This document shows positions 39,969 to 41,540 of a stretch of 48,759 bases of DNA, piece after piece. The DNA lies in NCBI GenBank assembly GCA_031268375.1, contig JAIRXJ010000028.1:1-48759 (forward strand), read 5' to 3'. The notes under the pieces were generated by a model. The model did not search any database. It worked only from the letters and a program-made list of their open reading frames with translations, and had not been told where the DNA came from. A program made the position numbers and the translations under genes. Origin of the DNA: Puniceicoccales bacterium (GTDB lineage Bacteria; Verrucomicrobiota; Verrucomicrobiia; Opitutales; JAIRKQ01). Numbering within the stretch: position 1 is the stretch's first letter; each line of letters starts with the position of its first letter.

Positions 39969-41540
39969 CTAAGGCATAAATGGAGCCCAATACTGTGCAT
40001 CGTGAACCTCGACATCGGTGGAATAAATCCTAAATCTTATAATGCTAGCCTCTTCGAAGGTGGATCTCTCCAATGTTCCGAATTCGAAGGTTGGAGGAGT
40101 GCCACCCTTTTTTCTGACCACCAGGCGGGGAATATCCTGCGACATATTCTTCCAATTGCCCCAATTGCGGTCGCCGATTGGGTATGCTTTCCCGGTTTCC
40201 ATATTATTCGGATCGAGGTCCAGTAGGGCATCGATGTCAATGTTTTCTGAATGATACAAATGACTATACTCACCAGCAGGTACTTCTATGATTTCTTTCG
40301 TCGATACACGCATGTAGCGGTGTTTAAGTTGCCGTTGAGCTTCGGCTTGTGCTTTTAATTCTGCTATTACGGCCAGAAAATTTGAACCATCCACTTGGAT
40401 TTTCGCTGAAAATGTTCTGGTAAATTTCTTGTGTCCAGCATATATTAGCATGGTGCCGTAGTTAGTATCGAAATCTATGTTATTATTTCCAAAGCCAGAC
40501 ACCTGGAAGAAGTGGGCAAACAATACATCATTCATGTTGTGTACCGGCATTTTAAGTTTATACTTTTCTGCTTCATCTGCCGATTTGACATATTCTATCC
40601 CTTCTTTCCGCCATTCTGCTATTACAGCATGCCTGCTAACACTCTCAAATATATCGTTTCTTCCGTATCCACCATTTTTCAAATCAATGGTAGTGTAACC
40701 ATCCACCATTGGTTGTAGTTGGAGTGCATATCCGCTCGGAAAGGTGAATTGGTCACTGTCTAACATATGCATATACATTGGTATCAGTCGTTCCGGGTGG
40801 TTTTGGATTTCTGCATTGATGAGAGAATTTATGGTGCACGTCGGCAAACTCCATTGCCTGTGAGGAGCAAGCAGGGATGCCAATATGGCTTCGCTGGACT
40901 TCAGAGGTGATTCCATGCCGTTTGACATGGCAGCTAAAAGGGATCGGCCATACCGTCCAACGGTGATACCGGCAGCAGCATCTAGTAGATCCCTAGCAGC
41001 ATTCTGATTATTCAAGAGGCATTCGCATACCCTATGCATCTGGGAACACATGAACTCTGCGTGGGGCACGGAACGAAACGGCTCTTTTTTGAGATTTTCT
41101 ACGTTCTCGAGAAAGTTCATCCATGTTCTGAGCTTAACGACATCAACCTTGCCATCTTCATCGAAACAATCTGCCGCCACTTTATTCGCTGTCGCTTGCC
41201 AAATCCTGCGGGCTCCTTTCGGAGTTATAAATGCCATATGTATCATATTCACTGCCGCCTGCCAAATCCTGCGAGCTCCCTCCGGAACCATATGCACCAC
41301 ATTCACTACCGCTTGCCAAATCCTGCAGGCTACTCCATGTGCCATACTCACTGCCATTCCACGATGGGCTTCTTCCAAACCACATTCGAATAGTTCATTC
41401 GCCAAAATATCGGAATCTTTCCGTGATAGGTGCCTTGGGTCTATACTTGGATTTTTACTCAATACTGGCTGTTTAAAACGTTCCACGACAGGCTTATTAA
41501 GATGTACCCCATGGATTGCCGTAGTATTAAACCTGGTCAT
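39969..41540 (-). CDS. Orphan 523-aa protein with N-terminal tandem repeats and a putative clan CA (papain/calpain-like) cysteine peptidase triad
   Basis: A long ORF with an ATG start, diverging from gspF. It has Q229-x5-C235 (HRQWSLPTCTINS), H427/H430 (SHLYHSEN) and N459 (GDRNWGNW). There is no signal peptide or TM. The opposite-strand ORF 41050..41727 is compositionally implausible. Confidence 0.5.
   Translation of the reverse strand: MTRFNTTAIHGVHLNKPVVERFKQPVLSKNPSIDPRHLSRKDSDILANELFECGLEEAHRGMAVSMAHGVACRIWQAVVNVVHMVPEGARRIWQAAVNMIHMAFITPKGARRIWQATANKVAADCFDEDGKVDVVKLRTWMNFLENVENLKKEPFRSVPHAEFMCSQMHRVCECLLNNQNAARDLLDAAAGITVGRYGRSLLAAMSNGMESPLKSSEAILASLLAPHRQWSLPTCTINSLINAEIQNHPERLIPMYMHMLDSDQFTFPSGYALQLQPMVDGYTTIDLKNGGYGRNDIFESVSRHAVIAEWRKEGIEYVKSADEAEKYKLKMPVHNMNDVLFAHFFQVSGFGNNNIDFDTNYGTMLIYAGHKKFTRTFSAKIQVDGSNFLAVIAELKAQAEAQRQLKHRYMRVSTKEIIEVPAGEYSHLYHSENIDIDALLDLDPNNMETGKAYPIGDRNWGNWKNMSQDIPRLVVRKKGGTPPTFEFGTLERSTFEEASIIRFRIYSTDVEVHDAQYWAPFMP
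41196..41340 (-). repeat. In-frame degenerate tandem repeat (three units, 54-63 nt)
   Basis: GCCAAATCCTGC recurs on the + strand at 41198, 41261 and 41315. It encodes ACRIWQAVVNVVHMVPEG / ARRIWQAAVNMIHMAFITPKG / ARRIWQATANKV. Confidence 0.85.

Follow-up and report, generated by a model that had tools for sequence, protein, structure and literature searches.

The DNA analysed here (hereafter the window) is the whole of contig JAIRXJ010000028.1, a stretch of 48,759 nt from a Puniceicoccales bacterium (assembly GCA_031268375.1), in which an open reading frame (ORF) for a 523-aa protein lies between the genes encoding a MoxR ATPase and GspF, a platform protein of the type II secretion system (T2SS). 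The question raised by this locus was whether the protein is a papain/calpain-like cysteine protease and whether it is secreted, as had been proposed in an original prediction made from the sequence alone. The ORF was real by the ORF list, and the residues and codons singled out in it were correctly placed: Q229, C235 (nt 40838..40836), H430 (nt 40253..40251), and N459 (nt 40166..40164). Q229 and C235 are within the segment HRQWSLPTCTINS, H430 is within SHLYHSEN, and D457 and N459 are within GDRNWGNW. The results described below make it rather probable (about 0.6) that the gene is one of the paralogs in a lineage-restricted, multi-copy cysteine hydrolase family with a divergent papain-like (clan-CA-type) core.

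A multi-copy protein family of Puniceicoccales

The protein had been regarded as an orphan, but a word-indexed search returned 52 homologs (E ≤ 1e-12), and an exhaustive profile search yielded at least 172 clusters (50% identity), of which 105 had E ≤ 1e-30. All named members were annotated as "hypothetical protein" and came from metagenome-assembled genomes (MAGs) of Puniceicoccales (Verrucomicrobiota). Genome contigs were searched with a profile from alignment A3, since alignment A2 was too divergent as a query. The family occurred in about 12 Puniceicoccales MAGs among the GTDB species representatives, with at least 7-8 loci in individual MAGs (Nc350_bin44 and Cd354_bin103), including tandem pairs and triplets, and with many copies located at contig ends; the window holds one copy. 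The conserved module comprises the C-terminal ~410 residues, and the part preceding it, which varies from ~60 to ~1000 residues, is hypervariable and matched no Pfam domain in the family members.

No significant match was found in Pfam, NCBIfam, PHROGs, PADLOC, or the PDB sequences, with single-sequence or profile queries, including the window protein and sets of 47 and 41 single members. Weak matches to DUF6850 (E 0.05-0.11), a fragment of the SK2 channel, and SIHH hydrolase were isolated and non-recurrent and were set aside as chance. The family is uncurated and confined to a little-known verrucomicrobial lineage, and no relative could be detected by sequence or identified with confidence by structure. 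Searches of the literature and of supplements, using the MAG isolate codes and Puniceicoccales in termite guts as subjects, yielded no paper describing these MAGs or the family.

In three paralogs (P0018, P0020, and P0028; locus L002, nt 8060..11860), the C-terminus is extended, and the extension contains a strongly hydrophobic segment near residues 563-575 (19-residue Kyte-Doolittle hydropathy 2.0-2.9), which is absent from the window copy and may be a tail anchor.

Conservation of the putative catalytic residues

Conservation was assessed in a wide alignment of 47 sequences (334 positions, 23-62% identity) and in alignment A1 of 41 sequences; counts out of 113 refer to the members covering all catalytic sites. 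In the wide alignment, which extends down to 23% identity, 19 of the 334 positions were conserved in at least 90% of the sequences, and Q229, C235, H430, and N459 were all among these 19 (hypergeometric p = 8e-6). Q229 was the single most conserved residue, being kept in 113/113 members including those without the Cys, while C235 was kept in 104, H430 in 107, and the full pattern Q-C-H-N433-D457-N459 in 88. D457, N459, and E432 were invariant in A1 (41/41 each) and N433 was present in 40/41; in the wider set, D457 was found in 41/47 and N459 in 43/47. The conserved motifs were thus P-H-R-Q-x-x-L-P-T-C, H-x-E-N, and I-G-D-R-N-W. The Gln/Cys/His/Asn signature originally read from one sequence was thereby borne out in its four residues, but not in its "WGNW" tail, since G461 and W463 were each present in only 9/41. 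Similarly, H427, the first His of SHLYH, was not conserved in A1, the conserved His being H430.

Of the six members lacking the His, four had also lost the Cys (Fisher p = 3e-4, without correction for shared ancestry), a joint decay that is the pattern expected of pseudo-enzymes. Replacement of the Cys by G, N, D, S, or T with retention of Q229 was observed in ~8% of the members (P0015, P0019, P0029, P0035, P0038, P0090, P0153, and P0173), which are likely pseudo-enzyme paralogs. Covariation by mutual information with average product correction, computed to infer where the Cys helix touches the His/Asp strands, was discarded because the signal was dominated by an indel-rich hairpin and the column mapping was unreliable (308 match columns versus 334 residues).

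Upstream of the conserved module, the three RIWQA repeats noted earlier were present, with motif starts at residues 73, 91, and 112, and they match a tandem repeat in the DNA (nt 41232..41346, period 54, 2.1 copies). The triplication is specific to this copy. Most paralogs have a single IWQ motif ~115 aa before the RQ..C motif, and the last RIWQA copy is the only family-invariant one (W114, 41/41 in A1).

Predicted structure and proposed mechanism

AlphaFold2 models were built with the family alignment for the full-length protein (predicted local distance difference test score [pLDDT] 85.5, predicted template modelling score [pTM] 0.86) and for residues 190-523 (pLDDT 91.7, pTM 0.90). Residues 1-33 were predicted to be disordered and residues 40-224 to be helical. 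Helix 235-247 begins with C235 in both models, these being helix 46-58 and residue 46 in the numbering of the domain model. An alpha/beta insertion of ~150 residues then separates this helix from the strand bearing the His, and the strands after the insertion are 409-419, 425-435 with H430 at the centre, and 452-457 with D457 at the end and N459-W460 just beyond, followed by 472-479, 484-491, and two more.

A papain-like core consists of a helix with the Cys at its N-terminus followed by an antiparallel sheet of topology 4-3-2-1-5 packed on that helix, in which the His is on strand 2 and a polar residue (Asn, Asp, or Gln) is on strand 3, the three residues being within hydrogen-bonding distance (PMC10318531). 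Both models place C235 at the N-terminus of a helix, and a His-bearing strand is followed by a strand bearing a polar residue, which agrees with this core in the order of the elements. If strands 425-435 and 452-457 were paired as a hairpin with residue 435 opposite 452, H430 would face D457.

In the proposed mechanism, C235 at the helix N-terminus would act as the nucleophile and H430 on the following beta-strand as the general base, D457 on the next strand together with N459 and W460 would orient and shield the His, and Q229 would form the oxyanion hole. Papain (MEROPS C1), calpain (C2), and UCH (C12) peptidases and isopeptidases likewise have an invariant Gln at position -6 from the Cys, the same spacing as between Q229 and C235. 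The most likely chemistry would be cleavage of peptide or isopeptide bonds. On the basis of residue conservation and predicted placement, a Cys-His active site is likely, and a papain-like fold is also favoured, with somewhat less confidence. If this is true, the proteins would represent a new family in the papain-like superfamily, covered by no curated model.

Synteny and rapid divergence

The order FolE/MoxR-[family gene]-GspF-orf197-MgtE-histidine kinase recurred in the loci of five other MAGs (L023, L016, L012, L007, and L015), no single locus covering the whole run from FolE to the histidine kinase. As shown in Table 1, the family gene ranks among the genes that evolve fastest in these genomes, with neighbours 83-98% identical at a syntenic site where the family members themselves share only about 50% identity; this contrast is the pattern expected at a host-symbiont interface. 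The syntenic copies were not mutual best matches and no clear orthologs were found across MAGs, while the paralogs of Nc350_bin44 grouped together at 67-76% identity.

Other paralogs were located beside tuf-secE-nusG-rplK, a pseudouridine synthase gene, or the genes for SctQ/SctR, and not beside T2SS genes. Since the flanks are 83-98% identical among the genomes sharing the arrangement, adjacency to gspF reflects general synteny, and gene order thus points to inheritance rather than a functional link. A functional link to MoxR or GspF was likewise rejected because paralogs occur in unrelated contexts.

Both neighbours were identified as originally described. MoxR (AAA_3 match, E 7e-64) is encoded convergently to the family gene and GspF divergently from it. 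The ~255-bp intergenic region attributed to the divergent pair holds for the ATG at nt 41796, where the alignment to the GspF model begins, but shrinks to 195 bp for the GTG start. A scan of nt 41541..41795 for promoters and terminators gave nothing better than shuffled sequences. The description of gspF as a lone T2SS platform gene was wrong, because gspE (nt 9583..11238) and the secretin gene gspD (nt 11676..13793) are in the same window. These belong to a minus-strand cluster (nt 9583..15301) encoding GspE (T2SSE, E 1e-123) and GspD (Secretin and Secretin_N), in which gspD is followed by two ORFs without an assigned family (nt 13803..14333 and 14336..15301). The T2SS/type IV pilus-like genes are thus split, with gspF 28 kb away from gspE/gspD.

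Export and the effector interpretation

Substrates of the T2SS must first reach the periplasm and therefore require a Sec or Tat signal peptide. The window protein lacks a signal peptide and a transmembrane segment, as had been stated originally (maximum 19-residue Kyte-Doolittle hydropathy 1.19; maximum 12-residue hydropathy 0.72 in the first 60 residues). By a crude hydropathy scan, used here instead of SignalP, no N-terminal hydrophobic segment was detected in any of the 81 full-length members (none above 2.0 in the first 50 residues), which argues against Sec-dependent export by the T2SS. The earlier route to an effector, through adjacency to gspF, is not supported: the adjacency is synteny of close relatives, other paralogs lie elsewhere, and 81/81 full-length members have no signal peptide.

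A different route is suggested by the genes of related MAGs. A protein encoded in Nc350_bin44 (locus L001) matched the SctR model TIGR01102 with 265 bits versus a cut-off of 208.6, the flagellar FliP model scoring below its cut-off, and SctR was found in many Puniceicoccales MAGs at 57-95% identity. These assignments indicate that a non-flagellar type III secretion system (T3SS) is encoded in the lineage. In L001, a tandem pair of paralogs is located 0.9-2.4 kb from sctQ/sctR. The polar, disordered N-terminus of the window protein, in which residues 1-33 are a candidate non-Sec export signal, together with the presence of a T3SS in the lineage makes the T3SS a more plausible route than the machinery of gspF.

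The sct cluster of L001 (nt 4132..6292) comprises a 246-aa ORF without an assigned family, SctQ (FliMN_C / TIGR02551), and SctR, and ends at lgt on the other strand; the T3SS genes appear to be scattered.

The designation as a secreted effector is thus retained in part. Multi-copy expansion, the hypervariable N-terminus, divergence at the syntenic site, and the T3SS of the lineage make it plausible, whereas adjacency to gspF and orphan status no longer contribute to it. The chances that the protein is an exported effector are judged to be about even. Export would be Sec-independent, most plausibly through the non-flagellar T3SS, and the proteins acted upon would be those of a eukaryotic cell, either host or partner; pressure from the host would explain the rapid diversification and repeated duplication. 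If so, the family would provide the first set of candidate effectors in the T3SS-bearing Puniceicoccales, a verrucomicrobial lineage of which only MAGs are known.

A further-reaching scenario may be considered, tentatively and with more doubt than belief. The family could be a structurally novel branch of Cys-His hydrolases, kept as about ten hypervariable copies per genome by T3SS-bearing Puniceicoccales symbionts, possibly of termite-gut flagellates, in an arms race with host targets, and could be the principal set of effectors in a verrucomicrobial endosymbiosis. Its members might then be, for example, ubiquitin-/ubiquitin-like-type isopeptidases or proteases that reprogram the protist host cell. 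We know of no effectors in the endosymbiosis in question.

Comparison with known cysteine hydrolases

In Foldseek searches of the PDB with the domain model, the matches of highest probability, none of them significant, were to SpvD (0.41/0.38), staphopain (0.28), and the C-terminal domain of BtaeB (0.25), with template modelling (TM) scores of at most 0.30. Likeness to papain and calpain was reflected structurally in sub-threshold matches to papain-like hydrolases, none of them calpain. The top-probability match, SpvD (PF05563; PDB 5lq6/5lq7), is a cysteine hydrolase effector of the Salmonella pathogenicity island 2 T3SS. It shares with the module the order Cys...His...Asp, an H-x-x-N at the His (H162-D-F-N165 in SpvD versus H430-S-E-N433), a Trp just past the Asp (D182-S-W184 versus D457-R-N-W460), and the lack of a signal peptide. 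However, SpvD has no Gln at position -6 from the Cys and is 216 aa long in comparison with the ~410 aa of the module, which contains in addition a large helical lobe and the ~150-aa alpha/beta insertion that follows the Cys helix and precedes the His strand.

Papain and calpain have the same order of Gln, Cys, His, and Asn/Asp, a Gln at exactly position -6 relative to a Cys that is itself at a helix N-terminus, and a Trp after the third residue, as seen here. The spacing from Cys to His is 195 aa in the window protein and of the same order in calpain. Neither enzyme was present among the top 50 Foldseek matches of either PDB search, and in contrast to them the window protein has no pro-peptide, signal peptide, Ca-binding domain, or C2-like domain.

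The family as a whole resembles the expanded sets of cysteine protease or deubiquitinase (DUB) effectors with which intracellular and protist-associated bacteria target eukaryotes, such as the Legionella Lot/OTU-like DUBs, the chlamydial ChlaDUBs, and the C58 proteins YopT/AvrPphB. In these effectors, too, lineage-specific paralog expansion has occurred, the N-terminus varies and the Cys-His catalytic module is conserved, Sec signals are lacking, and a specialised secretion system co-occurs, although no homology of the family to any of them was detectable. Both the proposed chemistry and the proposed biology have clear precedents, in clan-CA-type effectors and in the expanded effector families of host-associated bacteria, respectively.

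Evaluation of the assignment and of alternative explanations

Several observations weigh against the assignment as an exported cysteine hydrolase. Foldseek searches with the full-length and domain models against the PDB and with the domain model against BFVD gave nothing at E ≤ 0.001, the best E-value (0.017) being to an unrelated protein, and the SpvD match had a TM score of 0.29 with a root-mean-square deviation (rmsd) of ~9 Å. In the sets of 47 and 41 members, none matched a Pfam clan-CA family even with the threshold relaxed to E ≤ 10; the window protein matched no Pfam family at all at E ≤ 1, and none, Peptidase_C1 and Peptidase_C2 included, recurred at E ≤ 10 among the 47 members. Comparison by hhalign with an SpvD family alignment, built from spvD of pSLT, gave a probability of 0.1-0.4%, with no relation found. 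Cys, His, Glu, and Asp are, moreover, typical metal ligands as well. There is no sct/T3SS gene inside the 48.8-kb window, and the case for export, dependence on a T3SS, and a eukaryotic target is purely contextual. The MAGs may be linked to termite guts or flagellates, which we take from the isolate names and which the literature searches did not confirm. On the structural side, automated comparison frequently fails in the papain-like superfamily (PMC10318531). The top E-values were to PI3K-gamma p101, the TRPML2 luminal domain, and LolA, which were regarded as noise (probability ≤0.3, TM ≤0.2, rmsd 15-25 Å). The papain/calpain-like protease originally proposed is supported in that family conservation, co-loss of the Cys and His, and predicted secondary-structure placement agree with it, but it is matched by no significant profile of papain, calpain, or any curated family.

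With the same Cys-His-Asp papain-like core, the proteins could instead act as deamidases, transglutaminases, acyl-/acetyl-transferases, or ligases or deconjugases of ubiquitin-like modifiers on host proteins, as do enzymes such as Cif/CHBP, OspI, PMT-C3, SidC, and those of NAT type. This is an unlikely alternative, though one to be taken seriously, in that the invariant Gln at -6 is the peptidase/isopeptidase arrangement noted above, whereas SpvD, the closest weak structural match, is described just as a "cysteine hydrolase" and none of the present measurements separates the chemistries. The papain-like superfamily holds all of them on the same triad, but its transglutaminase-type families mostly have no canonical oxyanion residue (PMC10318531). 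An entirely non-enzymatic protein, in which the cluster of Cys, His, Glu, and Asp is metal-binding or structural and which serves as a rapidly evolving binding or scaffold protein, appears improbable. C235, H430, E432, and D457 would be good metal ligands, the ~8% of members without the Cys keep the rest of the fold, and none of the searches linked the family significantly to a hydrolase; yet the most conserved residue, Q229, is an atypical ligand in the canonical -6 position, the predicted arrangement of the Cys at a helix N-terminus and His/Asp on successive strands is papain-like rather than that of a typical zinc knuckle, and the weak structural matches of highest probability are all cysteine hydrolases.

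Multiple variable copies in tandem arrays, together with the weak match to the C-terminal domain of BtaeB, an effector of the Bacteroides type VI secretion system (T6SS; probability 0.25), would also suit a polymorphic toxin directed at other bacteria, paired with a cognate immunity protein and serving competition in a dense microbial community. That such toxins are encoded here is very improbable, because the architecture is reversed, with the C-terminal module conserved and the N-terminus variable, because no small conserved immunity-like ORF is adjacent (the neighbours in the window being MoxR and GspF), and because no T6SS, contact-dependent inhibition (CDI), Rhs, or PAAR-type domain was found in any member. 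The least credible alternative is a secreted substrate of the adjacent T2SS, as implied by the original link to gspF. At least four related MAGs (L023, L016, L012, and L007) preserve the divergent adjacency, and GspE and GspD are encoded in the window as well, but these genomes have 83-98% identical flanks and hence show general synteny, other paralogs are not beside T2SS genes, and neither the window protein nor the 81 full-length relatives have a Sec/Tat-type signal peptide.

Features of the locus and other genes of the window

Coordinates of the features of the family gene and its surroundings, and identities between MAGs, are listed in Table 1.

Table 1 Features of the 523-aa ORF and its neighbourhood in the window
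Feature	Position (nt)	Strand	Identity between MAGs	Remarks
523-aa ORF	39969..41540	minus		Complete ORF; one copy of an uncurated family restricted to Puniceicoccales, putative Cys-His hydrolase
Residues 1-33	41442..41540	minus		Polar, predicted-disordered N-terminus without signal peptide; pLDDT <50
Residues ~40-124	41169..41423	minus		Helical, three RIWQA helices
Residues 190-523	39972..40973	minus		Conserved catalytic module (putative), modelled separately
Residues 227-248	40797..40862	minus		P-H-R-Q229-x-x-L-P-T-C235 motif and helix from C235; proposed oxyanion Gln and nucleophile Cys
Residues 430-433	40242..40253	minus		H430-x-E432-N433, middle of strand 425-435; proposed general base His
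Residues 455-460	40161..40178	minus		I-G-D457-R-N459-W460, end of strand 452-457; D457 and/or N459 proposed as third triad residue, with a shielding aromatic
Divergent intergenic region with gspF	41541..41795	no strand		Nothing beyond weak consensus matches
Family member at syntenic site			47-55%	
MoxR	38887..39876		93%	
GspF	41736..43043		83-92%	
orf197	43100..43693	minus	83-88%	
MgtE			96-98%	
Histidine kinase			94%	
FolE			95%	Locus L015
FolP			88%	Locus L015

Between gspF and mgtE, orf197 encodes a 197-aa protein that had no match in Pfam/NCBIfam searches. Three loci of related MAGs have it in the corresponding place, and this conservation of position and identity indicates a real gene. 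A compact folate run on the minus strand (nt 36437..38704) encodes GTP cyclohydrolase I, dihydropteroate synthase, a FolB/FolX-like ORF, and HPPK, as identified by reading the translations.

Two further genes on the plus strand are distant from the family gene. A 322-aa protein encoded upstream of glgB (nt 17471..18439) has an IPT/TIG domain (E 1e-5) as its sole recognisable feature. A 442-aa protein (nt 8188..9516) has an N-terminal EIIA_2 domain of the phosphotransferase system (PTS) and a C-terminal DAC (di-adenylate cyclase) domain, a pairing that to our knowledge is uncommon and that suggests coupling of cyclic di-AMP synthesis to a PTS-type signal.

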